From sequence record MT808983.1: a DNA stretch of 39,817 nucleotides; one strand, 5' to 3'. Source of the DNA: Escherichia phage TM1. The translations under genes were made by a program, and so were the position numbers. The first letter of the stretch is position 1. Each line of letters begins with the position of its first letter. This document shows positions 6,114-36,345 of this stretch, piece by piece. Under the pieces are notes generated by a model. It was not told where the DNA came from. It searched no databases and was given only the letters and a program-made list of their open reading frames with translations.

Positions 6114-6119
6114 GATTAG
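6096..6119 (+). promoter_or_regulatory. Phage-RNAP promoter (taaACTATCACTATAGGatt), phi1.1 position
   Basis: Family consensus; predicted +1 G at 6113; overlaps the 3' end of the upstream ORF. Confidence 0.8.
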
Positions 6120-6160
6120 ACTCAAGGTCATGACTCAAAGTCGTGGCCTTCATGATTAAC
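6118..6160 (+). ncRNA. Conserved leader hairpin, candidate RNase III processing site (R1.1 position)
   Basis: agactcaaggtcatgactcaaagtcgtggccttcatgattaa; one of three copies of a conserved AGACTCAAGGTCAT...GGCCTTTATGATTA element. Confidence 0.5.
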
Positions 6161-6195
6161 CCTAACCTAACGTAAACTACTGGAGATTTAACAAC

Positions 6196-6375
6196 ATGTA
6201 TCAGAACACTATCAACTTCGAGCGCATCCGTGAACGTCAACAGACTGAAGATTATATTCCGAAGGGCCGCAAGCTGAACAAGACCAAGCGTGGCGGTGGT
6301 GTCAAGGGTGCTTTCCGTAACGCTGAAGGCAAAGACTCTCTGGTCAACCAAGAGAAATACTTCGTAGGAGCATAA
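6196..6375 (+). CDS. gp1.1: gp1.1-like small basic protein (59 aa)
   Basis: Contains GRKLNKTKRGGG, matching the GRKLNKTKR motif recalled from T7 gp1.1; position after RNAP and the phi1.1 promoter. Confidence 0.7.
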   Translation: MYQNTINFERIRERQQTEDYIPKGRKLNKTKRGGGVKGAFRNAEGKDSLVNQEKYFVGA

Positions 6376-6378
6376 GCC

Positions 6379-6630
6379 ATGAGTAAACGTTGGTTATTCG
6401 ACGCATCACCGAGCCAGTGGTCATCGTTAGGCCGGACCCACAGAGAGATGAGCGAGGCAGGACTTGAGGTCAGAATGGATGACCTGCCGTGCTCCGGAAA
6501 GACTCTGGTCCAAATCATTGAAGCAGACGATGGGAGGATTCTGGTCACGCGCAAATTTAACGAACACGAAATCTTTAGCTGTGAGCAATGGTGCTTGCAG
6601 CAACTGAATGCTTACAGGAGCTGGAAATAA
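6379..6630 (+). CDS. gp1.2: gp1.2-like protein (83 aa; the T7 homolog is a dGTPase inhibitor)
   Basis: Position between gp1.1 and ligase, similar length and C-terminal WK as recalled for T7 gp1.2; internal similarity is weak. Confidence 0.55.
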   Translation: MSKRWLFDASPSQWSSLGRTHREMSEAGLEVRMDDLPCSGKTLVQIIEADDGRILVTRKFNEHEIFSCEQWCLQQLNAYRSWK

Positions 6631-7670
6631 TGACAACTATCAAGACTAACCCTCACCGCGCTGTAGACTACTCTGAGTCTGGCGTTAAGAAAGCGCTCGA
6701 AGCTGCCGGGTCACTGGAAGCTGAAGTGAAGTATGACGGTGTGCGGTTGAACCTTCCGGTGCTGCGAGAGGGTGAGACTTATTGGTTAAGCCGTGAGTCG
6801 AAACCTCTGCCTGCCTTGGAGTGGATGAACTCTGAGCTAGGTAATGCGTGGACCCAAGCTGACTGGCGATGGTTCCTGCGGCAAGCTGGATACGAAGGTG
6901 TGGGCCTGATGATCGATGGCGAGGTCATGATCAAAGGTGTGGACTTCAACACCTCCTCAGGTCTCATCCGAACGAAGTGGCTCAAGCCTAACAATGAGGA
7001 GGTCGCTGAATGCTATCCGGGCCGTGGCAAGAAGGTCCCGTTCTTGGTCTCCCGGTCACGACTTCAGGTTGTGGTATATGGCGTTGTCGATATGACAACC
7101 ATAGCAGACCCGAAAGCCGAAGGTCCTATCCATAGCGTCACACGCCTGAAGGCCGAAGCCATCGTCCCTCTCCTCCAGAAATACTTCCCGGAAATCGACT
7201 GGGTATTATCTGAGAGTCATACAGTGTATGACCTTGAGTCGCTCAACTCCCTGTACGAAGAGAAGCGTCTGGAAGGACACGAGGGTCTGGTAGTCAAGGA
7301 CCCACTTGGTAAATACAAGCGTGGCAAGAAGTCAGGCATGTGGAAAATGAAGCCTGAGGAGACAATCGACGGGACAGTGTGTGGCCTCGTGTGGGGGACT
7401 CCGGGTAAGGCTAACGAAGGTAAGGTGATTGGCTTTGAGGTGCTGCTTGAGGATGGCATGGTGGTTAATGCTTGTGGTCTGACTGAAGAACAGAAGGATG
7501 AGTTTACGGAAGCCTGTAACACTGATACATATATTCTCGGTGGAATCAATCCATACGAAGGCTGGCAGTGTGAAGTCCTTTTCATGGAGCGGTTCCCTGA
7601 TGGCTCACTCCGTCACCCTAGCTTCAAGTGCTGGCGAGGGACGGAAGACAACCCGACCGTTAAGAGTTAA
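6630..7670 (+). CDS. gp1.3: ATP-dependent DNA ligase (T7 gp1.3 homolog)
   Basis: MTTIKTNPHRAV...EVKYDGVR (KxDG adenylation motif) ...GHEGLVVKDP...KRGKKSGMWKMKPE...SLRHPSF, collinear with T7 ligase; start taken at ATG 6630 (T7-like MxxIKTNP) rather than the upstream alternative start in the ORF track. Confidence 0.92.
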   Translation: MTTIKTNPHRAVDYSESGVKKALEAAGSLEAEVKYDGVRLNLPVLREGETYWLSRESKPLPALEWMNSELGNAWTQADWRWFLRQAGYEGVGLMIDGEVMIKGVDFNTSSGLIRTKWLKPNNEEVAECYPGRGKKVPFLVSRSRLQVVVYGVVDMTTIADPKAEGPIHSVTRLKAEAIVPLLQKYFPEIDWVLSESHTVYDLESLNSLYEEKRLEGHEGLVVKDPLGKYKRGKKSGMWKMKPEETIDGTVCGLVWGTPGKANEGKVIGFEVLLEDGMVVNACGLTEEQKDEFTEACNTDTYILGGINPYEGWQCEVLFMERFPDGSLRHPSFKCWRGTEDNPTVKS

Positions 7671-7678
7671 CTAAACGT

Positions 7679-7720
7679 CAACCCAGTGGTCTTCGGACTG
7701 CTGGGTTTCTTTGCTTTATG
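7679..7720 (+). terminator. Rho-independent terminator, analog of T7 early terminator TE
   Basis: GC-rich hairpin (aacccagtggtcttcggactgctgggtt) followed by a T-rich tract tctttgcttt directly after ligase, where T7 has TE. Confidence 0.7.
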
Positions 7721-7753
7721 CTAGCAAGCTATCGTCTGGTCAACCAGCCTGAC

Positions 7754-7777
7754 CCTAAGCTATCACTATAGGACAAC
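7754..7777 (+). promoter_or_regulatory. Phage-RNAP promoter (taagCTATCACTATAGGaca)
   Basis: Family consensus with one upstream substitution; predicted +1 G at 7771. Confidence 0.7.
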
Positions 7778-7803
7778 CATAACTTCGACCTAAGGAGGCC
7801 GAC

Positions 7804-8064
7804 ATGTTTAAGAACTTAATGTTCAACCGTTATACCAGTACCTTCCACCTGTCCCACAACCCGTTCGCTTGCATTAAGCGCAACGAGAAGCTGGGATACT
7901 TCGGGAAGGCCGTTAAGCTGTCACCTACAGTCTTCGCTCTGATTACTCCGGGCAAAGCTGAAGAGGCTCGCCAGAAGCGTGAGACCAACGTACCTGTGGT
8001 CTACACTAAGTGGCCCCGCGTTCGTCTGTTCGTTGAGCTCGTGAAGGAGGTGGTAAATGGTTAA
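7804..8064 (+). CDS. Class II hypothetical protein (86 aa)
   Basis: Strong SD (AAGGAGG) before ATG 7804; first gene after the TE-like terminator. Confidence 0.6.
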   Translation: MFKNLMFNRYTSTFHLSHNPFACIKRNEKLGYFGKAVKLSPTVFALITPGKAEEARQKRETNVPVVYTKWPRVRLFVELVKEVVNG

Positions 8065-8392
8065 GCACAAGGAGTGGTGCCGCTGGGTCCTTAGGTTCGG
8101 TTCGTGCGACTGCGGCGCTGTTACCATCATCCCCGCCCCGAGCAGTAAAGATGACGGGGTACGCAAGCCATCCCACTATCAGGTCTTTGATGGCGTGGAA
8201 TCCATTGAGATTATCGCCCGGTCCATGACTGTCAGTGAGTTCCGTGGTTTCTGCATGGGTAACGTCCTGAAGTATCGACTCCGAGCTGGTAAGAAGTCAG
8301 AGCTGGCGACTATGGAGAAGGACCTGAACAAAGCAGCCTTCTATCAGGAGCTGTTCGACCTGCATAAAGGTAAGTGCTATGCTGCCGAGTGA
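8057..8392 (+). CDS. Hypothetical protein (111 aa); tentatively related to the C-terminal region of T7 gp1.7 nucleotide kinase (DUF3310-like)
   Basis: SD GGAGG before the ATG; motif NVLKYRLRAGKK...DLNKAAFY recalled as typical of the DUF3310/gp1.7 family. The assignment is from memory and unverified. Confidence 0.55.
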   Translation: MVKHKEWCRWVLRFGSCDCGAVTIIPAPSSKDDGVRKPSHYQVFDGVESIEIIARSMTVSEFRGFCMGNVLKYRLRAGKKSELATMEKDLNKAAFYQELFDLHKGKCYAAE

Positions 8393-8470
8393 GTGGTGCC
8401 TGGAGATGTACGAGAAGACTCTCAACCCGGACTACATTACGTTATACAACCAATGGAAGGAGCGTGGTTT

Positions 8471-8629
8471 ATGACTGAGGTTGAGAAGAAATACATCGTG
8501 GAGCTTGAGGGTCGCGTTCAGTCCTTCGAGGTTCCGGTGTACGCAAAGTCTCTTGAAGAGGCTGCCCTGAAGTCCCAAGAGTATGAGGACGCTGGGTTTG
8601 TGGTCGGACGGATTCGTCCTGAGACCTAA
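8471..8629 (+). CDS. gp2: gp2-like inhibitor of host RNA polymerase (52 aa)
   Basis: [33 protein letters not shown] parallels T7 Gp2 ([34 protein letters not shown]); start placed at ATG 8471 with SD AGGAGCG rather than the upstream alternative start. Confidence 0.75.
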
Positions 8630-8648
8630 ACTATCACTGTAGGACAGA
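8625..8648 (+). promoter_or_regulatory. Phage-RNAP promoter variant (taaACTATCACTgTAGGaca)
   Basis: Family consensus with A to G at -3; precedes the SSB gene. Confidence 0.6.
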
Positions 8649-8686
8649 CGTCCAGTTCGTAACTTTAAAATAGGAGATTTACACCG

Positions 8687-9385
8687 ATGGCTAAAGAGCA
8701 ACTGAAGACTTTCACCACTCCGGTAGCTGGTATCGTTGAGCCTTACGCATGGCTGAACAAAGCAGACACCAAGTTTAACGAGCGTGGTGAGCATAAGGTT
8801 AACCTGACATTCGACCTGAGCAACCCGAAGGTCCGTAAGATGATTGATGTCTTACAGAAGATTCACGACGATGCGTATGCGAAAGCACTCGCAGACCACG
8901 AGAAGAACCCACCTCAGGTTCAGCGTGGCAAGAAGCCTATTGAACCACGAGAAGGCGACATGCCGTGGATTGAGAATGGTGACGGTACTGTTACCCTGAA
9001 GTTCAAATGCTTTGCGTCTTACCTTAAAGACGGCAAGTCCGAGCCTATCGTATTACGGTTCTACGGCACTGATGCTAAACTCATCCGTGACGTCCCGAAT
9101 ATTGGCGCTGGGTCTAAGCTGAAGGTCAAGTTTAAAGTCCTGCCGTTCAAGTGGAACGCTGCGACTGGTGCAAGCGTTAAGCTCCAGCTTGAGTCCTGCC
9201 TTCTGGTAGAGCTGAAGGAGTGGAAAGGTGATGGTGCTGGTGGTGATGGTGGCTGGGGTGATGATGAAGACCTCGGTACTGGCTACAAAGCGTCAACCGA
9301 TGGTGACTTCGGGTCTGATGACTTCGGTGACGATGGCTCCGATGGCGCTGACGACTCTAACTCTGGTGGCGATTACGACTTCTAA
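8687..9385 (+). CDS. gp2.5: Single-stranded DNA-binding protein (T7 gp2.5 homolog, 232 aa)
   Basis: MAKEQ...GDMPWIENGDGTVTLKFKC...GSKLKVKFKVLPFKWNAATGASVKLQLESCLLVEL, with an acidic C-terminal tail ending DYDF, as in T7 gp2.5. Confidence 0.92.
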   Translation: MAKEQLKTFTTPVAGIVEPYAWLNKADTKFNERGEHKVNLTFDLSNPKVRKMIDVLQKIHDDAYAKALADHEKNPPQVQRGKKPIEPREGDMPWIENGDGTVTLKFKCFASYLKDGKSEPIVLRFYGTDAKLIRDVPNIGAGSKLKVKFKVLPFKWNAATGASVKLQLESCLLVELKEWKGDGAGGDGGWGDDEDLGTGYKASTDGDFGSDDFGDDGSDGADDSNSGGDYDF

Positions 9386-9831
9386 TGAAACTTAAAGAGA
9401 AACTGGAGGTTTACTCTGAGGTTTCTCCTACTGGGTGCTGGGAGTGGCAACTCTCCCGGTTCCCTGCTGGATATGGTCGAATATCAATAGGACGTCAGAA
9501 ACAGGACTACGCTCACCGAGTTTCATACAGGGAGTACAAAGGTCCGATACCTGATGGATTGGTTGTTAGACATAAATGTGATAACCCCTGCTGCTGTAAC
9601 CCTGAGCACCTTGAATTAGGTACGCAGAAGGACAACATGAGGGACTGCATGGAGAGAGGACGAAAGTCCAACCCTCCCGTATTCAAAGGAGAAGCTAATC
9701 ATAAGACTAAGCTGACCAAGGAAAACGTAGAGTTCATCTTAGAGTCGATGCTGCCAGCTACAGAACTAGCCAAGATGTTTGGAGTCACACCAGCAGCTAT
9801 AAACTGGAGGAGACAACATGGCTGGACGTAG
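9385..9831 (+). CDS. HNH homing endonuclease (148 aa)
   Basis: H-N-H core HRVSYREY...VVRHKCDNPCCCNPEHLELGTQKDN; ATG overlaps the SSB stop (TAATG). Confidence 0.85.
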   Translation: MKLKEKLEVYSEVSPTGCWEWQLSRFPAGYGRISIGRQKQDYAHRVSYREYKGPIPDGLVVRHKCDNPCCCNPEHLELGTQKDNMRDCMERGRKSNPPVFKGEANHKTKLTKENVEFILESMLPATELAKMFGVTPAAINWRRQHGWT

Positions 9832-10270
9832 CATAAGCAGAGGACATCAAGTAGGGGCCTACCGCTCAGGACTTGAAGCAAAGAACCAAGAGTGGCTTGA
9901 GAAGAACGGCGTGAAGGCTGAATACGAGGCTTATAAAATAGGCTACGTAGTACCGTCCAGCGACCATTTCTACACGCCAGACTTTGTGTTGCCTAACGGT
10001 ATCATCGTGGAGACCAAAGGTATCTTCGATAGTGATGACCGTAAGAAGCACCTTCTGGTACGAGAACAGCACCCAGAGTTAGACATTCGGTTCGTGTTCT
10101 CAAGTTCCCGCTCCAAGTTATACAAAGGGTCTCCGACCACGTATGGCGCATGGTGCGAAAAGAACGGCTATAAGTATGCCGATAAGTTCATCCCGGTTGA
10201 GTGGCTTCGAGAGGCGACTGTACGTCTGCCTTCGGGCATACTCATCCCCAAGAAGAAAGGAGTTAAGTAA
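9818..10270 (+). CDS. gp3: Endonuclease I, Holliday-junction resolvase (T7 gp3 homolog)
   Basis: AYRSGLEAKNQEWLEKNG...YTPDFVLPNGIIVETKG...DDRKKHLLVREQHPELDIRFVFSSSRSKLYKGSPTTYG, collinear with T7 gp3. Confidence 0.92.
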   Translation: MAGRSISRGHQVGAYRSGLEAKNQEWLEKNGVKAEYEAYKIGYVVPSSDHFYTPDFVLPNGIIVETKGIFDSDDRKKHLLVREQHPELDIRFVFSSSRSKLYKGSPTTYGAWCEKNGYKYADKFIPVEWLREATVRLPSGILIPKKKGVK

Positions 10271-10725
10271 TGACTACCTGTAAAGACCTTGAAGTTGGAA
10301 CACGTTACAGATTCTCAAAGAACACCCTGCTGAATAACCCCGGATTCACTGATGCTGTTTTCGAAAAGCGAGAAGACCATAGCGTACTTGTGGAGAAGGG
10401 GTGGCATCCTGAGGATTACATCGGTGAGATTACAAGCTGGAATGGTCACGATACCTACAGTGTAGAAGTTGTTGACCAGCCTCAGGTCCTGCCAGCTTCG
10501 AGCGTACCACCTGTGACTGTGAAGCGTGAAGTCCTGACCATCGACAAGATTGGTGTAGGCCAGACGTTCATCGTCCACGGAAAGCCTGAAGAAGTTTACG
10601 TGAAGATTAGCAACTCACACGTCTTCAACCATAAGCGTCTCCAGATGCACACCACGGACGCACAACGCTTCACCCAGCACCTGAATCTGGTGGTCGTAGA
10701 ATTGGTGGTGTACAATGGTAAGTAA
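10270..10725 (+). CDS. Hypothetical protein (151 aa) between endonuclease I and lysozyme
   Basis: SD AAGGAG; start and stop overlap the neighbours; no counterpart at this position in T7. Confidence 0.6.
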   Translation: MTTCKDLEVGTRYRFSKNTLLNNPGFTDAVFEKREDHSVLVEKGWHPEDYIGEITSWNGHDTYSVEVVDQPQVLPASSVPPVTVKREVLTIDKIGVGQTFIVHGKPEEVYVKISNSHVFNHKRLQMHTTDAQRFTQHLNLVVVELVVYNGK

Positions 10726-11173
10726 GGTACAGTTCAACCCACGGTCCCGGACTGACGCTATCTTCGTTCACTGTTCGGCTACCAAGCCAGATATGGACAT
10801 CGGGGTAGAGACCATCCGTATGTGGCACAAGCAGCAAGGATGGCTGGACGTAGGCTACCACTTTATCATCAAGCGCGATGGTACTGTGGAAGAGGGTCGC
10901 CCGGTCAATGTCGTAGGGTCACATGTTAAGGACTGGAACTCAAAGTCCGTAGGCGTCTGCCTTGTAGGTGGAATCAACGCTAAGGGTCAGTTTGAAGCTA
11001 ACTTCACTCCAGCCCAGATGAACTCCCTTCGCAACAAGCTGGCTGACCTGAAGGCCTTGTATCCTCAGGCAGAAATCAAAGCACACCATGACGTAGCACC
11101 TAAGGCGTGTCCAAGTTTCGACTTGCAACGCTGGTTGACTACCAACGAACTGATCACTTCCGACAACGGTTAA
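10715..11173 (+). CDS. gp3.5: N-acetylmuramoyl-L-alanine amidase / T7 lysozyme homolog (gp3.5)
   Basis: VQFNPRSRTDAIFVHCSATKP...WLDVGYHFIIKRDGTVEEGR...AHHDVAPKACPSFDL, near-collinear with T7 lysozyme. Confidence 0.93.
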   Translation: MVSKVQFNPRSRTDAIFVHCSATKPDMDIGVETIRMWHKQQGWLDVGYHFIIKRDGTVEEGRPVNVVGSHVKDWNSKSVGVCLVGGINAKGQFEANFTPAQMNSLRNKLADLKALYPQAEIKAHHDVAPKACPSFDLQRWLTTNELITSDNG

Positions 11174-11197
11174 TAAATTCTAAAGGAGAACAACTCA

Positions 11198-11413
11198 ATG
11201 ATTAAACTTATCGAATTTCTTGGTCGTCTGGTGGTGCGTGGTTATCGTCGTGCTGCGGTACTGGAACGAAAGGTAGAAAAGAAGAATGCTGACGGTGCGA
11301 CTGATGCTGCTGCTCTGGCTGACAAGCTGACCATCGCGTCACTGGAAGCTGGCATGAAGGCACGTCAAGCTGACACCAAAGCTGACCAGTTGGCTCAGTT
11401 CTTCAAAGCCTAA
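11198..11413 (+). CDS. Small alanine-rich protein (71 aa), unknown function
   Basis: Strong SD AAAGGAGAA; its stop codon TAA lies inside the next promoter. Confidence 0.55.
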   Translation: MIKLIEFLGRLVVRGYRRAAVLERKVEKKNADGATDAAALADKLTIASLEAGMKARQADTKADQLAQFFKA

Positions 11414-11431
11414 ACTATCACCTTAGGGATG
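11408..11431 (+). promoter_or_regulatory. Phage-RNAP promoter variant (taaACTATCACcTtAGGGat)
   Basis: Two substitutions in the -4/-3 region; upstream of the tRNA-like element and the primase-helicase gene; probably weaker. Confidence 0.45.
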
Positions 11432-11476
11432 GGACCATGAGTCCTTTCCCTTTGTTCGCATTTGTGATTAAGAAAT

Positions 11477-11555
11477 GTCTCCATAGCTCAAACGGTAGAG
11501 CGGCGGGTCATGATGGCCTATTGCGATTAGGGTTCGAATCCCCGTGGAGACGCCA
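11477..11555 (+). tRNA. tRNA-like element (possible degenerate tRNA, candidate anticodon CAT; anticodon arm ambiguous)
   Basis: Perfect 7-bp acceptor stem (gtctcca/tggagac), T8, D-arm gctc-aaacggta-gagc with GG, T-loop GGTTCGAATCC, discriminator G and encoded CCA; but 26 nt between the D- and T-arms with imperfect anticodon stem pairing. Confidence 0.4.
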
Positions 11556-11566
11556 ATAAGGAGTGA

Positions 11567-13270
<1,704 letters not shown>

Positions 13271-13281
13271 GGAGGAGTACA

Positions 13282-13446
13282 TTGCTAAGAAAACTTAAAG
13301 CTCGCTACCATCGGTTCATGTACAAATGGTGGAGTGATGAAGCAACCTGCCTGTCCAACATTCTGGGAGACCAGAGGTTCTACTCTAAGGCATGGAAGAA
13401 AGCTAACCGGAAGTTTATGTATCACTTCTTGCGTACAGACTTCTAG
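13282..13446 (+). CDS. Small basic protein (about 54 aa), unknown function
   Basis: TTG start 7 nt after AGGAGG (alternative GTG at 13249, as in the ORF track); lies between the helicase and DNA polymerase genes. Confidence 0.35.
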   Translation: MLRKLKARYHRFMYKWWSDEATCLSNILGDQRFYSKAWKKANRKFMYHFLRTDF

Positions 13447-13450
13447 GTCT

Positions 13451-13498
13451 AGACTCAAGGTCATTCACATCGATTGGCCTTTATGATTAGACTAAACG
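13451..13498 (+). ncRNA. Conserved leader hairpin, candidate RNase III site (R4.7 position, upstream of DNA polymerase)
   Basis: agactcaaggtcattcacatcgattggcctttatgattagact; second copy of the conserved element. Confidence 0.5.
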
Positions 13499-13510
13499 CG
13501 GAGGATTAAC

Positions 13511-15679: not shown

Positions 15680-15688
15680 GGAGGTAAG

Positions 15689-16003
15689 ATGGGAGGTGTA
15701 GCAACCTTACGCTTCCATAAGATGCCTACTGGATGTATCGTCTGTGTATCTCACAAGAGGAACCAAGATGGATACTTTCGGTACACGGTAGGATCTGCCC
15801 GTAAGCCAGGACGCAAGGCGTTTATGTTTCACCGATGGGTGTGGGAACAGAAGCGCGGGCCTATACCAGATGGCTATGAGATAGACCATTTGTGTTTGAA
15901 TCGTGGGTGCTGTAACGTAGAGCATCTGCAATGTATTCCAAAGCGTGAGCACGTCATCAAGACGAACCGTGAGCGCAAACTTGTCAAGAAGGAGTGTCAC
16001 TAA
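15689..16003 (+). CDS. HNH homing endonuclease (104 aa)
   Basis: FHRWVWEQ...IDHLCLNRGCCNVEHLQCIPKREH (H-N-H motif); SD AAGGAGG; occupies the T7 gene 5.3 position. Confidence 0.85.
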   Translation: MGGVATLRFHKMPTGCIVCVSHKRNQDGYFRYTVGSARKPGRKAFMFHRWVWEQKRGPIPDGYEIDHLCLNRGCCNVEHLQCIPKREHVIKTNRERKLVKKECH

Positions 16004-17762: not shown

Positions 17763-17786
17763 ACTAAACTATCACTATAGGGACTT
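17763..17786 (+). promoter_or_regulatory. Phage-RNAP promoter (taaACTATCACTATAGGGac), phi6.5 position
   Basis: Family consensus; predicted +1 G at 17780. Confidence 0.8.
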
Positions 17787-18362: not shown

Positions 18363-18767
18363 ATGCTACCATATCTCAACTCACGCGAAGGTCGCCACAT
18401 GTGCGCTTGTCGCCTCTGGGAAGACGGGCAGTCTAACTTCAAGTCATTCGAGGACTTCAAGGCTCATACTTACCGTATGGCTGACGAGTTCGACGGTGAA
18501 GAATACACAATCTACGATGTCTCAGGTCAACCAGTAGCGTATCTCTACATGCTGGCTACCGCATCTTGGCACCGACCGACTCCCGGTCTTGACCTTTCAA
18601 TCGTCGCTGTTCGTCGTGACTCGCAGTCCTCCCGCAAGGTTCTTGAGACTGTCAGGCACATCGTAAACGAAGAGTGCAAGCGTTGGGGTCTTGACTGGTA
18701 TTCTCGTGTCAAGCATGTTTCTGGGTCGGTAGACATCGTAACAACTAAGGAGATTAATCGTGGGTAA
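18363..18767 (+). CDS. gp7-like protein (134 aa)
   Basis: Position between the 6.7 and 7.3 homologs and length similar to T7 gp7 (about 133 aa); sequence similarity not verified from memory. Confidence 0.5.
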   Translation: MLPYLNSREGRHMCACRLWEDGQSNFKSFEDFKAHTYRMADEFDGEEYTIYDVSGQPVAYLYMLATASWHRPTPGLDLSIVAVRRDSQSSRKVLETVRHIVNEECKRWGLDWYSRVKHVSGSVDIVTTKEINRG

Positions 18768-22865: not shown

Positions 22866-22908
22866 TGAAACCCCTTGGGTGCCTTCGGGTGCTTGAGGGG
22901 TTTTTTGC
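22866..22908 (+). terminator. Late terminator, analog of T7 Tphi
   Basis: aaccccttgggtgccttcgggtgcttgaggggttttttg; close resemblance to T7 Tphi (AACCCCTTGGGGCCTCTAAACGGGTCTTGAGGGGTTTTTTG). Confidence 0.85.
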
Positions 22909-22927: not shown

Positions 22928-23494
22928 ATGGCTCAATACATTCCACTGAATGCTAACGATGACTTAGACGCCATCAACGATATGTTAGCAGCTATCGGTG
23001 AACCAGCAGTCCTACAGCTTGACGAGGGGAACGCTGACGTCTCGAACGCTCAACGTATCCTGCATCGTGTCAATCGTCAGGTCCAAGCTAAAGGCTGGAA
23101 CTTTAACATCAACGAAGCTGCTGTCCTGACACCTGATGTCCAAGACAATAGGATTCGATTCTTGCCGTCATACCTTCGTGTAATGACCGCTGGGGCCACC
23201 AGCTACTACAGCAACATGGGTGGATACCTGTACGACCTGTCCACTCAGTCAACCACTTTCACCGACCCCATCACGGTAGAGCTTGTGGAGATGAAGCCAT
23301 TCTCCGAGATGCCTGTGGTCTTCAGGGACTACATCGTCACTAAAGCTAGCCGTGAGTTCAACGCTAAGTTCTTCGGTAGCCCAGAGTCAGAGCTATACCT
23401 TCGTGAGCAGGAAGCAGAACTCTATCAGCAGGTTATGGAGTACGAGATGGACACTGGTCGCTACAACATGATGTCTGACATCGGGAGGGACTAA
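22928..23494 (+). CDS. gp11: Tail tubular protein A (T7 gp11 homolog)
   Basis: ANAQRILHRVNRQVQAKGWNFNINE...YIVTKASREFNAKFFGSPE...MEYEMDTGRYNMM, collinear with T7 gp11. Confidence 0.9.
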   Translation: MAQYIPLNANDDLDAINDMLAAIGEPAVLQLDEGNADVSNAQRILHRVNRQVQAKGWNFNINEAAVLTPDVQDNRIRFLPSYLRVMTAGATSYYSNMGGYLYDLSTQSTTFTDPITVELVEMKPFSEMPVVFRDYIVTKASREFNAKFFGSPESELYLREQEAELYQQVMEYEMDTGRYNMMSDIGRD

Positions 23495-23721
23495 TGGCTA
23501 GTCACAACCTGAAGATTCACCGCCAGCACTTTGGTCCGGTACAGCTAGGTCTAAAGACAGCAGAGCTGAGACTTAACGACCGGGACTTTAAGGTTGGCGA
23601 TTGGCTTATCCTGAATGAGTGGGACAACGGGTATACCGGACAACAGGTAGCGCGTAAGGTTGTCCACATTGCTGACGTTGGTGACATCTCTGAAGGATAC
23701 GTCCTAATGAGTATGATTTAA
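23494..23721 (+). CDS. ASCH/DUF3850-like small protein (75 aa) inserted between the tail tubular genes
   Basis: LKIHRQHFGPVQLGLKTAELRLNDRDFKVGDWLILNEWD...YTG...EGYVLMSMI matches the recalled DUF3850 (ASCH-like) pattern; ATG overlaps the gp11 stop. T7 has no gene here. Confidence 0.65.
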   Translation: MASHNLKIHRQHFGPVQLGLKTAELRLNDRDFKVGDWLILNEWDNGYTGQQVARKVVHIADVGDISEGYVLMSMI

Positions 23722-26135: not shown

Positions 26136-26174
26136 ATAGGCCCTTTAAGTTATAATACTTTAATAGGAGACTTT

Positions 26175-26657
26175 ATGTATATTCGTAAAGCTACGGAACC
26201 AGATGTCCACTACTTTCTCTGGCATCTTTCGGCAGATGATGTTAATGAGTGCAAAGCAAACTATGGGTCAACCGTGGGTCTCTCTGAAAGACTGCTTAAG
26301 CACCTATCTCCGTCATCTGTGGTTTTAACGAACGGTGTAGGCGAAGTGTTTGCCTATGGTGGCAGCCAAGGGGATAACGTATGGTTTTTGACTTCAGGTC
26401 TGGTCAACAAGCTGAGACCTAAAGAGAAGCGAGAGTTCATAAAGCGTATCTCTGAGTACAGGGACTTAATGTTAGACCAATACGGGACCATCTGGAACTA
26501 CGTGTGGTCAGGCAATAAGTCTCACATTAAATTCTTGAAGTTGCTTGGCGCTAAATTCCATGATGATTGGACTATCAGTCCGGTAACTGGTGAGCGTTTT
26601 CAATTATTTACTATCTCTAAGGAGGACGTATGTGTGAACCAGTATCCATCGGTCTAG
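26175..26657 (+). CDS. gp13-like internal virion/assembly protein (160 aa)
   Basis: ATG 26175 with SD AGGAG downstream of the phi13-like promoter (the longer track ORF from 26097 would span the promoter); position between gp12 and gp14. Confidence 0.6.
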   Translation: MYIRKATEPDVHYFLWHLSADDVNECKANYGSTVGLSERLLKHLSPSSVVLTNGVGEVFAYGGSQGDNVWFLTSGLVNKLRPKEKREFIKRISEYRDLMLDQYGTIWNYVWSGNKSHIKFLKLLGAKFHDDWTISPVTGERFQLFTISKEDVCVNQYPSV

Positions 26658-27217
26658 GAGTCATGTCTGTAGCCGGGGCCACTATGTCCTCATCCATGCA
26701 GGCCAAGGCCGAAGGTGCAGCAATTGACGCTCAGAACCGACAGGCTCAGGAGATGATTAAGCAGATGAACTACTCTGACGCCAACCTGAAGATGCAGGAG
26801 CGAGACCTGAAGGAGCAGCAGATGGCTGAACTGACAGAGACCACGCTCAACGGTATACGCAATCAAGGTATGGTCCGAGCTGCGGTGGCTGAGTCCGGTC
26901 TGGAAGGTAACTCTATGGACAGGATTGAACGTCAGGTCGAAGGAGATACAGTCAAGGAGCGAGCAGGGATTACCGAAAGTTACAACCGCGACTATGCAGC
27001 TATCTTCGGAAACCGTATCGCCAACATTGAGAACACCAAGTCTGCTATCCGTGGTCAGGGTAAAATCATCAAGACCAGCCCACTGGCTCATGCACTTAAT
27101 GTTGCTACAGCAGGGATGCAAGGTTACGCCGCTGGTAAGTCAATGTCTGGGACTTCAGGCTCTGGTGGTGCTGCACCAATTAGTGCTGCTAAAGGCACAC
27201 CGACAGGTCATAGATAA
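26630..27217 (+). CDS. gp14: Internal virion protein B (T7 gp14 homolog, 195 aa)
   Basis: Position between the gp13-like and gp15 genes; length as in T7 gp14 (about 196 aa); SD GGAGGA. Confidence 0.85.
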   Translation: MCEPVSIGLGVMSVAGATMSSSMQAKAEGAAIDAQNRQAQEMIKQMNYSDANLKMQERDLKEQQMAELTETTLNGIRNQGMVRAAVAESGLEGNSMDRIERQVEGDTVKERAGITESYNRDYAAIFGNRIANIENTKSAIRGQGKIIKTSPLAHALNVATAGMQGYAAGKSMSGTSGSGGAAPISAAKGTPTGHR

Positions 27218-27228
27218 GAGGAGGACTA

Positions 27229-29511: not shown

Positions 29512-29515
29512 CATA

Positions 29516-32500
29516 ATGGCGACTCGTGGTATTCGCAATAACAATCCGGGTAACATCCGGGTAAGTAAGGACCAATGGGAAGGAATGACTGGAGATGATG
29601 GCGCATTCGTCACCTTCGATAGTCCAGAGTCTGGCGTCCGAGCTTTAGGTAAAAACCTGCTGTCCTACGGTCGCCAAGGTTATGATTCCATCGAGAAGAT
29701 TATCAACAGATGGGCACCTCCTAACGAGAACGACACTCAGGCTTATATTAACTCAGTGGTGGCTGCGACTGGTATTCCAGCTACCCAGAGTCTCGACCTC
29801 TCGAACCCGGACACCCTGTCTTCTCTGGCACAAGCTATCAGCTTCCATGAGACAGGCTCCCGGTACGACCCTGAAGTCTATCAGAAGGGAGTCGCACGAG
29901 CACTCAACGGCATTAGCCCAAAGACTCCACCAGTAAGCGCTAACGTATTTGACTCACTCACGGAAGGACTCAAGGCTAAACCTAAAGTAGCTCTGGGCGA
30001 GAATCTTCCGACCGCTGCTGGTCTAAACATTGAGGGTCAAGCACCTGAAGCTCCCAACGAATCGTTCGGTGAGATGTTCTATAAGGCTACTGGCGAGACC
30101 ATGCAGGAACGAGAGGACCGCTCTACGTGGTTCGGTTTCGGTGCGGCTACAGAAGCTGAAGTGAAGAACTCTATGGTCGGCGTGGCTATCCGAGCTGGCC
30201 AGACTGAGGATTCACTGGATGTCATTGGCGATGTGTTCAACCCAACCAGATGGAACAACCATAAGTGGTCTCGTGAGGAGCTGGACCAGATTCGTAACGC
30301 TGGGGTTTTGCCTCAGTATTACGGAGTCATTACTGGTGGTTCTCCTCAGAATCTGACAGAGCTGATCAACTTGGCGCTGGAGAACCAGAAGTTAGACGCT
30401 GAGAAGGCCAAGGCTGGTACTGGCGCTCAGTTAGCCGCTGGTGTGATTGGAGCTGGAGTTGACCCTCTGACTTACGTTCCTATTGCTGGACAGGTAGGTA
30501 AAGGTGGTAAGCTGGTAAACAAGATGTTCACCGTGGCTGCGCAATCTGGAGCGTTGGCTGGTGTGTCTGAGATGTCCCGTACCTCAGTGGCTGGTGGCGA
30601 TGCTCATGTGGCTGAAGCTATCCTTGGTGGTGCTCTCTTCGGTGGTGGTATGACTGCTATTGCTGATGGACTAGGCAGAGCCTTAGGCCGAAACACTAAT
30701 GAGTTTGCTGGTCCAGCCACACGTCTGGAAGCCCGTGAGACTGCACGTAATGTTGATGGTCAGGACCTGTCTCGTCTACCTATTCAGGAAGGTGAGCAGA
30801 CCTTTAGTCACCAAGGCGTTAAGTTCGCTGACGTTCCGAACGAGCCTGGTAGTGTACGACTTGAAGATGGTTCAATCCTGATTGGTGAGAACCCTCTGAA
30901 CCCTAAGACACGTAAAGTCTTTGACGAAGTGATTGAGCCTGAACGTGCCGCTGCTGGTGTGAACCTTGGTGGGCTGACTGAGATTGGCCTGAAGCTGCTT
31001 CGGTCCGAGAACCCTGAGATTCGTGGAGTCGCTGCTGACTTAGTGCGTTCACCAACTGGTATGCAGTCAGGGGCCACAGGTAAAATAGGGACCACTGCGT
31101 CAGACGTATTCGAGAGACTTCGTGCTGTGGACCATCGGTTCTACAACGACATCGACGATGCAGTTAGAGAGGCACTCAAGGACCCATACTTCCAAACAGC
31201 ATTCTGGCGAGACTCTGGCGCATTCCGTCAGGACATCTATCAGCGTGTGTCTATGGCTATCGAAGACGGTAGTGGGAACCTGAAGGCTGAACTGACTCCG
31301 GGAGAACTGAAAGTCTATGACCTGCTGAAGAACCAGTTTGACGCCAAGCGTGAGATGATGGAGAACCCATCTATGTTCGGGCGTCCAGACGCTCAGTCTA
31401 TCTTTCCGGGTAGCCGCTTCAAGGGAACCTACGTCCCGCATGTGTATAGTAACCAGATGAAGGAGCTGTACATCAAGGAGCTTGGGAGTCCAGAGGCGTT
31501 GCAGGAGGCAATCAAGAAGTCATGGCTTACCAGCTATGCGTCTCGACCTGAAGTAAAGAAACGTGTGGACGAGGCACTATTAGAGGCGGACCCTACGTTG
31601 ACTCCAGAGGGACTTGCGGCTGCGGTCGATAAGTACGCCAACGATAAGGCTTACGGTATCTCCCATACAGAGCAGTTCGAGCGTTCATCCGTAATGGAAG
31701 AGAACATCAACGGTCTGGTAGGTCTGGAGAACAACAGCTTCCTTGAGGCGCGCAACCTGTTCGATAGCGATATGTCAATCGTCCTGCCTAACGGTCAGAC
31801 CTTCAGTGTCAATAACCTACGTGAGTGGGATATGGACAAGATTGTCCCGGCCTACAACCGTCGAGTTAATGGTGATATTGCTATCATGGCTGGTACAGGA
31901 AAAACCACGAAGGACATGAAGGACTTGGTTGAGACCATGATGAACAAGGCTGGGGATGACGGTAAGTTGAAAGGTGAGGTATCTACCTTACGTGACACCT
32001 TGAAGATTCTCACTGGTCGTGCTCGACGTGATGGTGCTGATGATGCAGCACTCAATACCGTGCTACGCACAATGACAGACCTATCGTTCTTCGCTAAGAA
32101 TGCCTACATGGGTGTTCAGAACTTAACGGAGATTGGTGGTATGCTGGCCCGTGGTAACGTCCGTGCAATGCTGCATGGGGTCCCGATTTTCCGTGACCTA
32201 GCCTTCCGTAACAAGAAGGTAGGGGCCTCAGAGATTAAGGACCTGCACAATGTTATATTCGGTAAGGAACTGGATGACTCAATCCGTCCGTCTAAACAGG
32301 ATGTCATTGACCGTCTGCGGTCTTACAGTGACCTCGGTCGTGGTACGGCTACAGCTCTGGGGACTGCCAAGTATTACACTGGTGAACTTGCAGTACGCTC
32401 TCCGCTCACTAAAGTCCTCAACGGTACGACCAACTACCTGTTAGATGCTGGACGTCAAGGATTCCTGTCTGACATCGTGGAACATAGTCTGACTGGTAGT

Positions 32501-33403
32501 AAGCGTCGGTTCGATGACCGCTGGCTTAAGACCGCTGGTATCTCCGAAGAGCAGTGGAAGGGCATTAAGTCATTAATCCGTGAGTCAGTGACTCGTGGTC
32601 CAGACGGGAAGTATACCATCAAGGATAAGAAGGCGTTCAGTCAGGACCCAAGGGCTATGGACCTGTGGCGTATGGGTGACACCATCGCTGACGAAACGTT
32701 ACTCCGTCCTCATAAGCTGTCCAACATGGACGCCAAGGCTTATAGTCCCCTCGCTAAGACTGTCCTTCAGTTTAAGAACTTCGTCATCAAGTCCATCAAC
32801 GGGCGAACCATGCGAACCTTCTACAACGCCACGAAGAACAACCGAGCGATGGACGCTGCACTGTCTACTGTGATGTCTATGGGTCTGGCTGGTATCTACT
32901 ACATGGCTCAGGCGCACGTCAAGGCTTACGCTATGCAGGACGGTCGAGACAGAGATTACCTCAAGCAAGCTCTGGACCCGACGATGATTGGCTATGCGGC
33001 TCTGTCCCGTAGCTCACATCTGGGTGGCCCACTTGGGGTCGCTAACATTCTGGGCGGCATCGCTGGGTATGAGGACACTAAGATGCTCCGCTCGTCTATC
33101 CTCCCTCGTTCACCTACAGAGAAGCCTGAACGTGCCATCTCGTATGGTGCGGCTACAAGTGACCCTGTGATGAATGTCGTCGGTAACTTCTTGGAGCAGG
33201 TTCCAGCTTTCGGCTATGCTGCTAACGTTGGTGCTTCGGCTTACAACTTGGCTGGCTACCTCAAGGCTGATACTCGTGTCAACGAGCGAGACTACATGAC
33301 CGGGATGTATAACACGTTCCGTGAACTGGTCCCGAACGACCCGATTACCCAGAAGTTGCTGCTTGGAACGTTTGAGGAGCATGGTATCCACATCAAGGAC
33401 TAA
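29516..33403 (+). CDS. gp16: Internal virion (ejection) protein D (T7 gp16 homolog, 1295 aa)
   Basis: Middle and C-terminal regions collinear with T7 gp16 (FGFGAATEAEVKNSMVGVAIRAG, KGTYVPHVY, AYGISHTEQF, NNSFLEARNLFDSD, TNYLLDAGRQG, AMDLWRMGD...LRPHK); the N-terminal about 120 aa diverge. Confidence 0.92.
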   Translation: MATRGIRNNNPGNIRVSKDQWEGMTGDDGAFVTFDSPESGVRALGKNLLSYGRQGYDSIEKIINRWAPPNENDTQAYINSVVAATGIPATQSLDLSNPDTLSSLAQAISFHETGSRYDPEVYQKGVARALNGISPKTPPVSANVFDSLTEGLKAKPKVALGENLPTAAGLNIEGQAPEAPNESFGEMFYKATGETMQEREDRSTWFGFGAATEAEVKNSMVGVAIRAGQTEDSLDVIGDVFNPTRWNNHKWSREELDQIRNAGVLPQYYGVITGGSPQNLTELINLALENQKLDAEKAKAGTGAQLAAGVIGAGVDPLTYVPIAGQVGKGGKLVNKMFTVAAQSGALAGVSEMSRTSVAGGDAHVAEAILGGALFGGGMTAIADGLGRALGRNTNEFAGPATRLEARETARNVDGQDLSRLPIQEGEQTFSHQGVKFADVPNEPGSVRLEDGSILIGENPLNPKTRKVFDEVIEPERAAAGVNLGGLTEIGLKLLRSENPEIRGVAADLVRSPTGMQSGATGKIGTTASDVFERLRAVDHRFYNDIDDAVREALKDPYFQTAFWRDSGAFRQDIYQRVSMAIEDGSGNLKAELTPGELKVYDLLKNQFDAKREMMENPSMFGRPDAQSIFPGSRFKGTYVPHVYSNQMKELYIKELGSPEALQEAIKKSWLTSYASRPEVKKRVDEALLEADPTLTPEGLAAAVDKYANDKAYGISHTEQFERSSVMEENINGLVGLENNSFLEARNLFDSDMSIVLPNGQTFSVNNLREWDMDKIVPAYNRRVNGDIAIMAGTGKTTKDMKDLVETMMNKAGDDGKLKGEVSTLRDTLKILTGRARRDGADDAALNTVLRTMTDLSFFAKNAYMGVQNLTEIGGMLARGNVRAMLHGVPIFRDLAFRNKKVGASEIKDLHNVIFGKELDDSIRPSKQDVIDRLRSYSDLGRGTATALGTAKYYTGELAVRSPLTKVLNGTTNYLLDAGRQGFLSDIVEHSLTGSKRRFDDRWLKTAGISEEQWKGIKSLIRESVTRGPDGKYTIKDKKAFSQDPRAMDLWRMGDTIADETLLRPHKLSNMDAKAYSPLAKTVLQFKNFVIKSINGRTMRTFYNATKNNRAMDAALSTVMSMGLAGIYYMAQAHVKAYAMQDGRDRDYLKQALDPTMIGYAALSRSSHLGGPLGVANILGGIAGYEDTKMLRSSILPRSPTEKPERAISYGAATSDPVMNVVGNFLEQVPAFGYAANVGASAYNLAGYLKADTRVNERDYMTGMYNTFRELVPNDPITQKLLLGTFEEHGIHIKD

Positions 33404-33422
33404 ACTATCACTATAGGAAACT
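33399..33422 (+). promoter_or_regulatory. Phage-RNAP promoter (taaACTATCACTATAGGaaa), phi17 position
   Basis: Family consensus; the gp16 stop codon TAA lies at -17 to -15. Confidence 0.8.
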
Positions 33423-33468
33423 GGAGGCGCTACCATAGGTCTCCCTTTAATTCATAACAGGAGGCATA

Positions 33469-35772
33469 ATGTCCACGATTACACAATTCCCTTCAGGAAA
33501 CACTCAGTACAGGATTGAGTTCGACTACCTAGCCAGAACGTTTGTTGTTGTTACGCTGGTGAATAGCTCTAACCCTACCCTGAACCGTGTACTGGAAGTT
33601 GGTCGAGATTACCGATTCCTTAATCCAACGATGATTGAGATGTTGGTTGACCAATCAGGTTTCGACATCGTTCGTATTCACCGTCAGACTGGAACTGACT
33701 TAGTGGTAGACTTCAGGAATGGCTCAGTGTTGACAGCTAGTGACCTGACCAATGCAGAGCTTCAGGCTATCCATATTGCAGAAGAAGGTCGAGACCAAAC
33801 TGTTGACTTAGCGAAGGAATATGCCGATGCTGCTGGTAGCTCTGCTGGCAACGCTAAGGATAGCGAGGACGAAGCACGACGACTCGCTGCGAGTATCAAG
33901 GCAGCTGGTCTAATTGGCTATATTACCCGTCGCTCCTTCGAGAAAGGCTTCAACGTTACAACATGGAACGAGGTCCTGCTATGGGAAGAGGATGGTGGTT
34001 ATTACCGCTGGGATGGTACGCTACCTAAAGAAGTTCCTGCTGGTTCAACCCCTTCGACAACTGGTGGCGTTGGTCTGGGTGCATGGGTGAGTGTTGGTGA
34101 CGCCTCTTTGCGTTCAAATCTTATTAGTGACAATTCAACTAATGGAGATGCACTGATAACCGTCAAGCAGCCATTTGCTAATTCCACGCCAAGAACGCAG
34201 CATGATAAAAACTCGGACATCATAAATATCCGTGATTTTGGTGCTGTTGGTGACTGGGACCCAGTCACAGACACCGGAACTGACAGCACACAAGCACTTA
34301 TTAACGCGGTTAATGCCGCCGTTTCGTTAGGAGGGGCTGAAATTGTTGTCCCTGAGGGGGTGTTCTGTACTACAAAGCCGTGGTATATACCAAGCGGCAT
34401 CGTTGTCAGAGGTAGTGGGTATAATTCTGTTATTTACAATCATCAGGTTTCTGGTTCAGTTTTCCCGCAAACTAACTGCATTCACGTTGGATATAGCACC
34501 GAGTGGGGAAACAGCGGTGAGCCAATGCCGACGGCCCCTGATGCAAAAATGGCTGAAATTCTGGCAAATAATTTCAGTAACATTACAACAAGGAATTCTC
34601 GTGTAACTAATATCCGCGTAATGAATAAGGGGTTTGGTCTTGGTATTTGGTTCATGAATGCTATGGATTGCTCTTGCGACAATATATGGGCTACTAATAC
34701 TACCACACCAATTAACATAGCCAATGATAACCCCTCGGCAGAAATGGCGTGCAAAAATATATCCGTTGATAATATATTTCAAGATGACGGTACGTTAGGC
34801 GAATGGTACGACCTGGCTTTCTTAGGTTCAGCGCTGGACTGTTCTTTATCTCGTCTATACAATAACCCGAACACAAAAAGTAAATTGGCAGAAATGATTG
34901 CTGTCAACGGTGCTCGTCGTTGCAAACTGTCAAAACTATCCCTTTGCGGTAATGAGGACGGTGTGGACCTGCAAATCGCCACCGGGGTGCTTATTTCTGG
35001 TTCATCTACAGGGAACTCTGTAACTAACTCAACATTCTCTAAGATGTCCAATGGGGTGAGTATCACCGGCACTGGCGGCAACACAGTAAAAGATTGTCGA
35101 GGCGAAAACATTTACACGACAGTATATCTTAACTCACCGAAGAACAAGATTTCCGGATTATCTGGTATTGATGTTGTTAACGACATTAGAGGTAATGTAG
35201 ACGCAATCAAAAATGACATAAATAATTGTAATATAAATTCCGTTAATATTTTCGATGTAAACCCTCCAGCTATGTATAATAGATTCAGAGATAACTCAAA
35301 AGATGATTCTATTCTTTTTAATAACTACAATAGCTATGCTGGGCTTCGTGCGAGAAAGATAGCAATGTTCCCCGCCGACGCTGCCATGCTCGCGTCGGAT
35401 AGAGAAGCAACGACAAATAACCTTGCGCGCATAACCAGAAATTCTAACGGAATATTTTCGTTATATTACAAAATACCTAATAACGTTAAGCAATTAACTA
35501 ATGTTACAGTTTACGGATACGGCGCACAATCCGGTGAAGCTGTAGACATAAGCATTGTTGGCATTGACTCCGATAACAACATAAATGGATTCCCAACATT
35601 TCAGTCACTAGGCACAAAAACTACAACTTCCACCGCCGATTTTGCTTTTGTATTCGGACCAACTAACCCTTTTTATGCTGCGGGTAGTTATTATGTGAAA
35701 GTAACGGTGACAATAGGTAATACTGCGACACAAATAAGGAGTGTTATGCTTGAATGTCTGTGTGATGACTAA
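33469..35772 (+). CDS. gp17: Tail fibre / tailspike (gp17 homolog, 767 aa) with T7-like N-terminal adaptor and a predicted beta-helix depolymerase-like C-terminal domain
   Basis: N-terminus (FDYLARTFVVVTL...DLVVDFRNGSVLTASDL...IHIAEEGRD) parallels the T7 gp17 tail-attachment domain; from about residue 240, INIRDFGAVGDWD...TDDT...ALINAVNAA is a pectate-lyase-3/beta-helix-type start followed by N/S/T-rich repeats; the DNA turns AT-rich from about 34100. Confidence 0.9.
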   Translation: MSTITQFPSGNTQYRIEFDYLARTFVVVTLVNSSNPTLNRVLEVGRDYRFLNPTMIEMLVDQSGFDIVRIHRQTGTDLVVDFRNGSVLTASDLTNAELQAIHIAEEGRDQTVDLAKEYADAAGSSAGNAKDSEDEARRLAASIKAAGLIGYITRRSFEKGFNVTTWNEVLLWEEDGGYYRWDGTLPKEVPAGSTPSTTGGVGLGAWVSVGDASLRSNLISDNSTNGDALITVKQPFANSTPRTQHDKNSDIINIRDFGAVGDWDPVTDTGTDSTQALINAVNAAVSLGGAEIVVPEGVFCTTKPWYIPSGIVVRGSGYNSVIYNHQVSGSVFPQTNCIHVGYSTEWGNSGEPMPTAPDAKMAEILANNFSNITTRNSRVTNIRVMNKGFGLGIWFMNAMDCSCDNIWATNTTTPINIANDNPSAEMACKNISVDNIFQDDGTLGEWYDLAFLGSALDCSLSRLYNNPNTKSKLAEMIAVNGARRCKLSKLSLCGNEDGVDLQIATGVLISGSSTGNSVTNSTFSKMSNGVSITGTGGNTVKDCRGENIYTTVYLNSPKNKISGLSGIDVVNDIRGNVDAIKNDINNCNINSVNIFDVNPPAMYNRFRDNSKDDSILFNNYNSYAGLRARKIAMFPADAAMLASDREATTNNLARITRNSNGIFSLYYKIPNNVKQLTNVTVYGYGAQSGEAVDISIVGIDSDNNINGFPTFQSLGTKTTTSTADFAFVFGPTNPFYAAGSYYVKVTVTIGNTATQIRSVMLECLCDD

Positions 35773-35834
35773 AGCAGACTAACGTATGGTAACAACTTTG
35801 GGTCACGGACGACCCGCTTTAAACTGGAGGTTTT

Positions 35835-36029
35835 ATGATTGAGTTAGACTTCAAGAATGAGGTCCTTAAAGCCTCTCCTATCGTCGGGACCGCTGCGGCT
35901 GATGGTGCCAGTCGGTTCTTCTTCGGACTCACACTGAACGAATGGTTCTACGTTGCAGCTATCGCGTACACCGTTGTCCAGATTGGTGTGCTGGTCTACA
36001 AAACGATTAAAGGAGGCGGTAAAACATGA
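35835..36029 (+). CDS. gp17.5: Class II holin (T7 gp17.5 homolog, 64 aa)
   Basis: FFGLTLNEWFYVAAIAYTVVQIG matches T7 holin (FFGLSLNEWFYVAAIAYTVVQIG). Confidence 0.9.
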   Translation: MIELDFKNEVLKASPIVGTAAADGASRFFFGLTLNEWFYVAAIAYTVVQIGVLVYKTIKGGGKT

Positions 36030-36289
36030 CGCAGATGGACTTAGAGAAGTTCCTCTTGATGCTGGATACTGAACGTGCTCGACTCATGCTGCAAGACCTG
36101 CGGGATGACTCTAAGCGTTCACCTCAGCTCTACAACGCCATTGAGAAGCTACTGGCTCGTCACAACTTTGTGTTAAGCAAGGTGTCTGTGGACGAGAAGA
36201 CGCTCGCTGATATGGAGGCCCTGAACGCAGAGTACGATAAGGTGCTTTCAGAGACTGAGGATAATGACACCGGTTATGGTATTCAATAA
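36026..36289 (+). CDS. gp18: Terminase small subunit (T7 gp18 homolog, 87 aa)
   Basis: LMLDTERA...SKRSPQLYNAIEKLLARHNF parallels T7 gp18 (EMLDTAMA...RRSPQLYNAINKLLDRHKF). Confidence 0.85.
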   Translation: MTQMDLEKFLLMLDTERARLMLQDLRDDSKRSPQLYNAIEKLLARHNFVLSKVSVDEKTLADMEALNAEYDKVLSETEDNDTGYGIQ

Positions 36290-36290
36290 G

Positions 36291-36345
36291 TGTTAGACTC
36301 AAGGTCATTACTATATGTAGTGGCCTTTATGGTTAACACTAAGGA
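36291..36345 (+). ncRNA. Conserved leader hairpin, candidate RNase III site (R18.5 position)
   Basis: tgttagactcaaggtcattactatatgtagtggcctttatggttaacac; third copy of the conserved element. Confidence 0.5.

Follow-up and report, generated by a model that had tools for sequence, protein, structure and literature searches.

Predicted T7-type RNase III processing sites and a conserved AC-N5-GT dyad in the genome of Escherichia phage TM1

The polycistronic transcripts of phage T7 are processed by the host RNase III at specific sites (PMC6938266). Substrates of the Escherichia coli enzyme span about two helical turns, require a minimum of ~11 bp between the cut and the loop and are optimal with a UA/UG distal box, and internal loops restrict the enzyme to a single phosphodiester, so that the RNA keeps a 3' hairpin as a shield against 3'-to-5' exonucleases; the cellular substrates, such as the rRNA precursor stems and the rnc leader, are likewise recognised over about two turns of double-stranded RNA through their proximal and distal boxes (PMC1540722). 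We analysed the genome of Escherichia phage TM1 (MT808983.1; the whole stretch of 39,817 bp is called the window below), a complete T7-like genome of the Kayfunavirus group (K1F/EcoDS1/ST31-like), and focused on a recurrent hairpin element. Taken together, sequence, fold, covariation, homology and synteny with the T7 sites make it highly probable that three near-identical elements and three diverged early copies are T7-type RNase III processing sites of polycistronic mRNAs. Cellular RNase III sites differ in that they are usually cut on both strands, and they have no sequence in common with the TM1 elements.

The word AGACTCAAGGTCAT is found exactly at positions 6118, 13451 and 36295, on the plus strand only, and occurs nine times when up to two mismatches are allowed, against 0.54 expected, a number that none of 100 shuffles attained; the word GGCCTTYATGRTTA is exact at 6145, 13476 and 36322, again with none of 100 shuffles as high. 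These matches agree with the spans 6118-6160, 13451-13498 and 36291-36345 that a sequence-only reading of the genome had singled out, the full hairpins being slightly larger. The three share one fold and all are stable when folded as RNA: a lower stem of 7-8 bp is followed by an internal loop of 4x5 bases (5' ACUC, 3' YAUGR) and an upper stem of 10-12 bp, opening with AAGGUCAU and closing with GUGGCCUU, that measures 12 bp in site 1 and 11 bp in site 3. Their coordinates, folding energies (z scores against shuffles) and scores in the covariance model described below are as follows.

6112-6163, plus strand: site 1, R1.1 equivalent; -18.8 kcal/mol, z = -3.9; 64.0 bits; lower stem 6112-6119/6156-6163, ACUC 6120-6123, upper stem 6124-6135/6139-6150, CAUGA 6151-6155; predicted single cut U6153/G6154, placed by the T7 register.
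13446-13493, plus strand: site 2, positional equivalent of R4.7; -16.2 kcal/mol, z = -3.9; 65.3 bits; ACUC 13453-13456, UAUGA 13482-13486; predicted cut U13484/G13485.
36289-36340, plus strand: site 3, R18.5 equivalent; -23.1 kcal/mol, z = -5.7; 66.9 bits; ACUC 36297-36300, upper stem 36301-36311/36317-36327, UAUGG 36328-36332; predicted cut U36330/G36331, 21 nt upstream of the AUG.

On the map of open reading frames (ORFs) and promoters, and by comparison with the annotation of T7 and EcoDS1, the three lie where T7 has R1.1, R4.7 and R18.5, as had been proposed from the sequence. Site 1 resembles T7 R1.1, which comes after phi1.1A: its 5' end coincides with the transcription start of the phage promoter at 6101-6114, and the gene 1.1 homologue lies downstream; site 3, between gene 18 (end 36289) and gene 18.5 (start 36352), resembles R18.5. 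Site 2 separates a gene 4.3-like ORF, part of the gene 4 block, from the DNA polymerase gene (gene 5, start 13511); T7 R4.7 precedes gene 4.7, and since TM1 has no gene 4.7, site 2 stands directly before gene 5. The description of all three as inter-operon leaders thus holds for site 1, the only one in a promoter leader, whereas sites 2 and 3 are intergenic elements inside long transcripts.

The likeness to T7 extends to the sequence itself. R1.1, whose RNA is a model substrate of the Nicholson laboratory, reads gggacaaACTCAAGGTCATTcgcaagaGTGGCCTTTATGATTgacc in T7, with the core ACTCAAGGTCATT..GTGGCCTTTATGATT in common with the window elements; R0.5 is AGACTCAAGGTC..GTGGCCTTTATGATTA, with both halves identical to the window consensus, and R4.7, R18.5, R0.3 and R1.3 are clear variants that align in the same register. 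These six T7 sites and the window elements are united by a common core, ACUCAAGGUC...GGCCUUYAUGAUU, by the same stems and 4x5 loop, and by strand, intergenic placement and map position. The sequences of the apical stem, apical loop and lower stem differ between the two phages, with compensatory changes.

A covariance model built on the nine-sequence alignment of the three TM1 elements and the six T7 sites, with a consensus of two helices and 18 pairs of which 9 show compensatory changes, was run unfiltered. In the window, it gave the three main elements 64-67 bits, equal to the T7 sites' own scores; on T7, the top eight matches were all known sites, including R6.5 (40.4 bits) and R1 (21.6 bits), on which it had not been trained, and no further match fell below E = 0.05. 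The recovery of the T7 sites with no spurious matches indicates that the model is specific. The set of three on which the sequence-only reading had settled proved to be incomplete, as the model also recovered three early copies.

1049-1107, plus strand: early site; 36.2 bits, E = 1.4e-7; -23.0 kcal/mol, z = -3.7; loops ACUAC / GACUGA as in T7 R1; predicted cut after U1092.
1942-2002, plus strand: early site; 35.1 bits, E = 2.8e-7; -25.7 kcal/mol, z = -4.45; predicted cut after A1987.
694-759, plus strand: early candidate; 21.1 bits, E = 0.003; fold z = -1.8; predicted cut after U744.

Beyond these six, nothing in the window scored better than E = 0.9. The early matches (21.1-36.2 bits) score about level with or above the genuine T7 R1 site (21.6 bits), a variant-loop site upstream of gene 1, and it is the R1 type that they follow: the ACAGGUC...GGCCUGA variant and its register are common to R1 and all three. 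The copy at 1049-1107 immediately precedes the homologue of ocr (gene 0.3) at 1124; that at 1942-2002 is intergenic, following an ORF that ends at 1946; and that at 694-759 is upstream of the first early ORF (776), its lower stem and loop sequence identical to those of 1049-1107. The placement differs from that in T7: the TM1 variant sites precede early genes, including ocr, and R1 precedes gene 1, while TM1 gene 1 has a phage promoter of its own and an unstructured leader.

Relatives give wider evidence for a conserved RNA structure. At least 120 stretches, from ~40-kb T7-like contigs, were matched in an IMG/VR pattern scan, and a BLAST search with site 3 matched 765 phage records with hosts in Klebsiella, Escherichia, Salmonella, Yersinia, Vibrio and others; the elements are therefore not specific to this phage, as the sequence-only reading had supposed, but occur widely in enterobacterial T7-like phages, although its proposal of a family of processing or stability elements is upheld, in the form of RNase III-type sites, by the T7 homology and the covariation. 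The copies are intergenic, on the coding strand and syntenic with T7, EcoDS1 and K1F, the last two having orthologous matches. The model's matches in 83 sources amounted to 150 sequences; in the large alignment of the 123 distinct ones, 93.8% of the cells of the two-helix fold were paired, against 78.7% in shuffled sequences and 24-49% with slid partners. Double changes occurred in 16 of the 18 pairs, those of the lower stem and the apical pairs included, and the covariation score was 0.45 versus 0.18; at one heavily covarying pair UA was found 52 times, GC 50 and AU 12. G·U pairs are frequent (U·G in 111 of the 123 sequences at one pair), and the minus strands of sites 1, 2 and 3 fold at -15.7, -10.0 and -12.2 kcal/mol, more weakly than the plus strands, which argues that the structure belongs to the plus-sense RNA and not to the DNA.

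For K1F, Kayfunavirus or T7-like genomes, a literature search on RNase III sites returned nothing specific. In MZ726794.1, the R18.5-equivalent hairpin (36774-36834) is annotated as a 'terminator', and an RNase III site is annotated in no record among the matches listed for site 3. The lack of RNase III labels and the one 'terminator' label suggest that the elements are systematically unannotated or mislabelled.

By analogy with T7, the transcribed plus strand would form a hairpin of ~50 nt, or about two helical turns, whose quasi-continuous helix would be bound by the host RNase III and cut at a single phosphodiester within the 3' strand of the internal loop (YAU/GR), the loop being the proposed reason for the one cut only. 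The upstream mRNA would then end in the intact upper hairpin, shielding it against 3'-to-5' exonucleases, and the downstream mRNA would begin with a new 5' end 21-42 nt ahead of the start codon and with its Shine-Dalgarno region released from the lower stem. The cuts are predicted after 6153, 13484 and 36330 and, by homology, after 744, 1092 and 1987 in the early sites.

Several points weigh against this account. Cleavage in TM1, its exact position and its effects on stability and translation are carried over from T7, and the T7 cut coordinates (R1.1, R0.5, R4.7, R18.5, R0.3 and R1.3) are those attributed to Dunn & Studier 1983; RNase III features are absent from the GenBank annotation of T7 (NC_001604, V01146), EcoDS1 and K1F. 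All six T7 positions share one register, five bases past GGCC (..YAU/G..), which supports these coordinates. At the distal box, where R1.1 has a U·G pair, site 2 has a U·U mismatch, and site 1 has a G-C replacing U-A; only site 3 has the R1.1 pairs. Sites 1 and 2 are thus off-canonical and may be cut less efficiently, so that efficiencies may differ among the sites. The copy at 694-759 is weak and the least certain of the six. In the large alignment, the loop columns owe part of their conservation to the retrieval pattern, in which the loop and the inner upper stem were set in advance; it is the lower stem and the apical pairs that supply independent evidence. Finally, a search of Rfam (at the gathering threshold and at E <= 1) assigned no family to the elements and returned only a tRNA match at 11477-11552.

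Three other explanations of the hairpins were considered. A role without cleavage, either in mRNA 3'-end stability or as a binding site for RNase III or some other protein, would fit the departure of sites 1 and 2 from the R1.1 distal box and has a precedent in motifs that permit RNase III binding but block cleavage (PMC1540722). We nevertheless consider this very unlikely, as the internal loop and its neighbouring pairs match those of cleaved T7 sites, and within a transcript a hairpin could protect a 3' end only if an end were made beside it. An action at the level of DNA, through cruciforms or protein-binding dyads, is suggested by the 5' half of the elements, GACTCAAGGTC, an instance of a GAC-N5-GTC motif that is enriched and conserved in TM1 and is related to the AC-N5-GT dyad taken up below. 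The T7 sites share this 5' half, yet GAC-N5-GTC is not in excess in T7 (14 vs 11); the G·U pairs become A·C mismatches on the opposite strand, which folds worse; and the covariation spans ~50 nt, far past a dyad of 9-11 bp, all of which leaves this explanation of the hairpins with hardly any credence. As stable intergenic hairpins on the coding strand, one of which is a homologue of the 18/18.5 stretch labelled a terminator in MZ726794.1, the elements might also pass for intrinsic terminators or attenuators between gene blocks. A rho-independent terminator was rejected, however: no U-tract comes after any of the six elements, and none is flagged by a terminator scan that does flag the TE-like 7680-7707 and the Tphi-like 22882-22899; moreover, a conserved asymmetric internal loop does not belong to the make-up of a terminator. 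The chance that the hairpins act in this way is very small.

Besides the sites of R1.1 type, T7 has the promoter-proximal, weaker sites R3.8, R6.5 and R13, and the first of these has a counterpart in the window.

11426-11462, plus strand: R3.8-like hairpin, from the transcription start of the promoter at 11414; -17.9 kcal/mol, z = -3.2.

This hairpin, which also EcoDS1 and K1F have conserved, has an 18-nt block, UUUCCCUUUGUUCGCAUU, in common with T7 R3.8; judged by this shared block, it is homologous to R3.8, of the non-canonical, weaker RNase III class. On the sequence evidence, TM1 is thus predicted to carry six canonical-type sites plus one R3.8-like hairpin. The covariance-model search detected no equivalents of T7 R1, R1.3, R6.5 or R13 in the window, and the phi6.5 and phi13 leaders of the window show no significant fold. 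In T7, R6.5 (18499-18576) was modelled as a 78-nt hairpin with the phi6.5 promoter within its apical loop; on this model, the full site could be formed by read-through transcripts only. Matches of 72-80 nt resembling R6.5 were found in several IMG/VR loci and none in the window.

The sequence-only reading had further listed a partial copy at 2585-2601, and related GACT..AAG motifs in the leaders after the promoters at 2584 and 17780. The word GACTCAAGGTC is indeed exact at 2585-2595, but with no 3' half and no model match it is not a member of the RNase III family. The GACT..AAG words are likewise present in the leaders, but neither leader shows significant structure (fold z = -0.66, -1.0 and -0.5 for the two leaders; -0.66 and -0.54 for that of gene 1) or matches the model, and the idea that they are degenerate RNase III sites was rejected, no fold being found with or without upstream sequence. 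Both are almost invariant in K1F and EcoDS1, the gene 1 leader being 98% identical. The leader at 17780 contains neither an RNase III motif nor an AC-N5-GT dyad. In the gene 1 leader, the words are explained by a tandem series of dyads.

2586, 2600, 2623 and 2650: four tandem AC-N5-GT dyads of the gene 1 leader, the first being GACTCAAGGTC at 2585-2595.

The dyad is a genome-wide feature. With up to one mismatch, the two strands together hold 17 copies of the 11-mer GACTCAAGGTC, where 1-3 are expected; the palindrome GAC-N5-GTC is found 72 times, against 16.9 ± 4.1 in Markov-3 simulations, and is enriched at spacing 5 only, with 76 copies in EcoDS1 and 80 in K1F; and the core AC-N5-GT has 421 copies, against ~155 at other spacings. 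The best form is R-AC-Y-N3-R-GT-Y, in which the outer flanks favour R (beside AC) and Y (beside GT) and the inner flanks Y/R. The excess is 2.7-fold in TM1 and 1.7-fold in T7 (275 vs ~160), and it is absent from a 50-kb sample of E. coli K-12 (151 vs ~160) and from more distant T7-like contigs. The copies fall in all three frames and are densest in noncoding DNA and near the genome ends, with the peak density in the short-repeat arrays beside the terminal repeats and in the gene 1 leader; they are nearly absent from the tail-fibre gene region, the longest gap being 2,096 bp from 32689. The commonest unit, the 9-mer ACCTACAGT, has 12 copies, against 0.4 expected, dispersed internal copies included, and its arrays adjoin both terminal repeats (215-299 and 39576-39600), analogous to the end-proximal ACCTAAAGT arrays of T7, the units of both being AC-N5-GT words.

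Conservation follows the specified bases closely. All six specified bases of GAC-N5-GTC have been kept at 91.7% of the orthologous sites in EcoDS1 and 91.5% of those in K1F, against ~74% for 63 control palindromes; per-base identity to the two relatives is 98.4-98.6% at the specified bases versus 93.1-93.5% in the spacer; and the AC and GT bases are conserved at 96.8% at spacing 5 versus 93.9% at other spacings (Fisher p = 4e-11). These comparisons indicate that the specified bases of the dyad are under purifying selection. The mirror symmetry of the flanks, together with the lack of covariation, points to a double-stranded dyad and dismisses a hairpin. Nor is the dyad a coding or codon artefact, given its presence in all frames, its strength in noncoding DNA and its restriction to spacing 5. 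T7-type primase sites are unlikely, as T7 shows a stronger enrichment of the GTT form than of the GTC form and the inner positions are unlike GG/TG/GT, and restriction avoidance was rejected since it predicts depletion where enrichment is seen. True scarcity is found in related words: GAC-N3-GTC is nearly missing (one copy vs ~17 expected; one in EcoDS1, none in K1F), and GCC-N5-GGC and GAT-N5-ATC have no copies, which may represent restriction-site avoidance.

We know of no description of the AC-N5-GT dyad, and a literature search for GACNNNNNGTC in phages gave no match. Among 20 small or lineage-specific ORFs scanned with Pfam, none was an obvious dimeric, sequence-specific DNA binder. The pattern suggests, as far as the genome comparison goes, that T7-group phages share a sequence-specific interaction with DNA that has gone unrecognised. 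It is possible, if rather unlikely, that the 5' half of the hairpins, G/A-ACUCAAGGU-C, does double duty, serving in RNA as part of the RNase III hairpin and in DNA as an instance of the selected R-AC-Y-N3-R-GT-Y that marks enterobacterial T7-like genomes.

The general features of the genome are as follows. Its identity to Kayfunavirus phages, among them P762, ST31 and the EcoDS1 and K1F relatives, is 90-94%; all of its genes are on the plus strand, among them the RNA polymerase gene (gene 1; 2659-5340, 893 aa), and there are 11 phage promoters with the core ACTATCACTATAGG. The terminal repeats are ~179 bp, a motif triplet at 84/97/153 reappearing at 39722/39735/39791. Further elements were seen along the map.

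9385-9831, plus strand: HNH_3 endonuclease ORF after gene 2.5, an additional gene relative to the EcoDS1 order gp2.5-gp3-gp3.2-gp3.5.
15689-16003, plus strand: second HNH_3 endonuclease ORF, after gene 5.
23494-23721, plus strand: 75-aa ORF between tail genes 11 and 12, with a DUF3850/ASCH (PUA-like) domain; the EcoDS1 counterpart is annotated 'unknown product'.
11477-11555, plus strand: tRNA-like element between the R3.8-like hairpin and gene 4; tRNA-Met with anticodon CAT by ARAGORN, Rfam tRNA 36.5 bits (11477-11552).

The two HNH_3 ORFs are probably homing endonucleases. The tRNA-like element is present in ST31-like relatives, where it is labelled tRNA-OTHER, tRNA-Thr or pseudo, and is missing from EcoDS1 and K1F; it could be a second RNA-processing signal, of the RNase P type.

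Overall, the hairpins of TM1 would be an orthologous set of a textbook element, and our understanding of RNase III processing is unchanged by them. Their value lies mainly in annotation: six sites with predicted cuts would give the transcript boundaries of Kayfunavirus, a genus used in K1-capsule phage therapy work, and the TM1 sites offer natural sequence variants of the classic R1.1 substrate. The AC-N5-GT dyad may matter more than the hairpin finding itself. Were the double role of the 5' half true, the GACT..AAG family would be the tip of an undescribed, genome-wide recognition signal for a DNA-binding factor of the phage or the host, a putative factor acting, for example, in concatemer processing or packaging.

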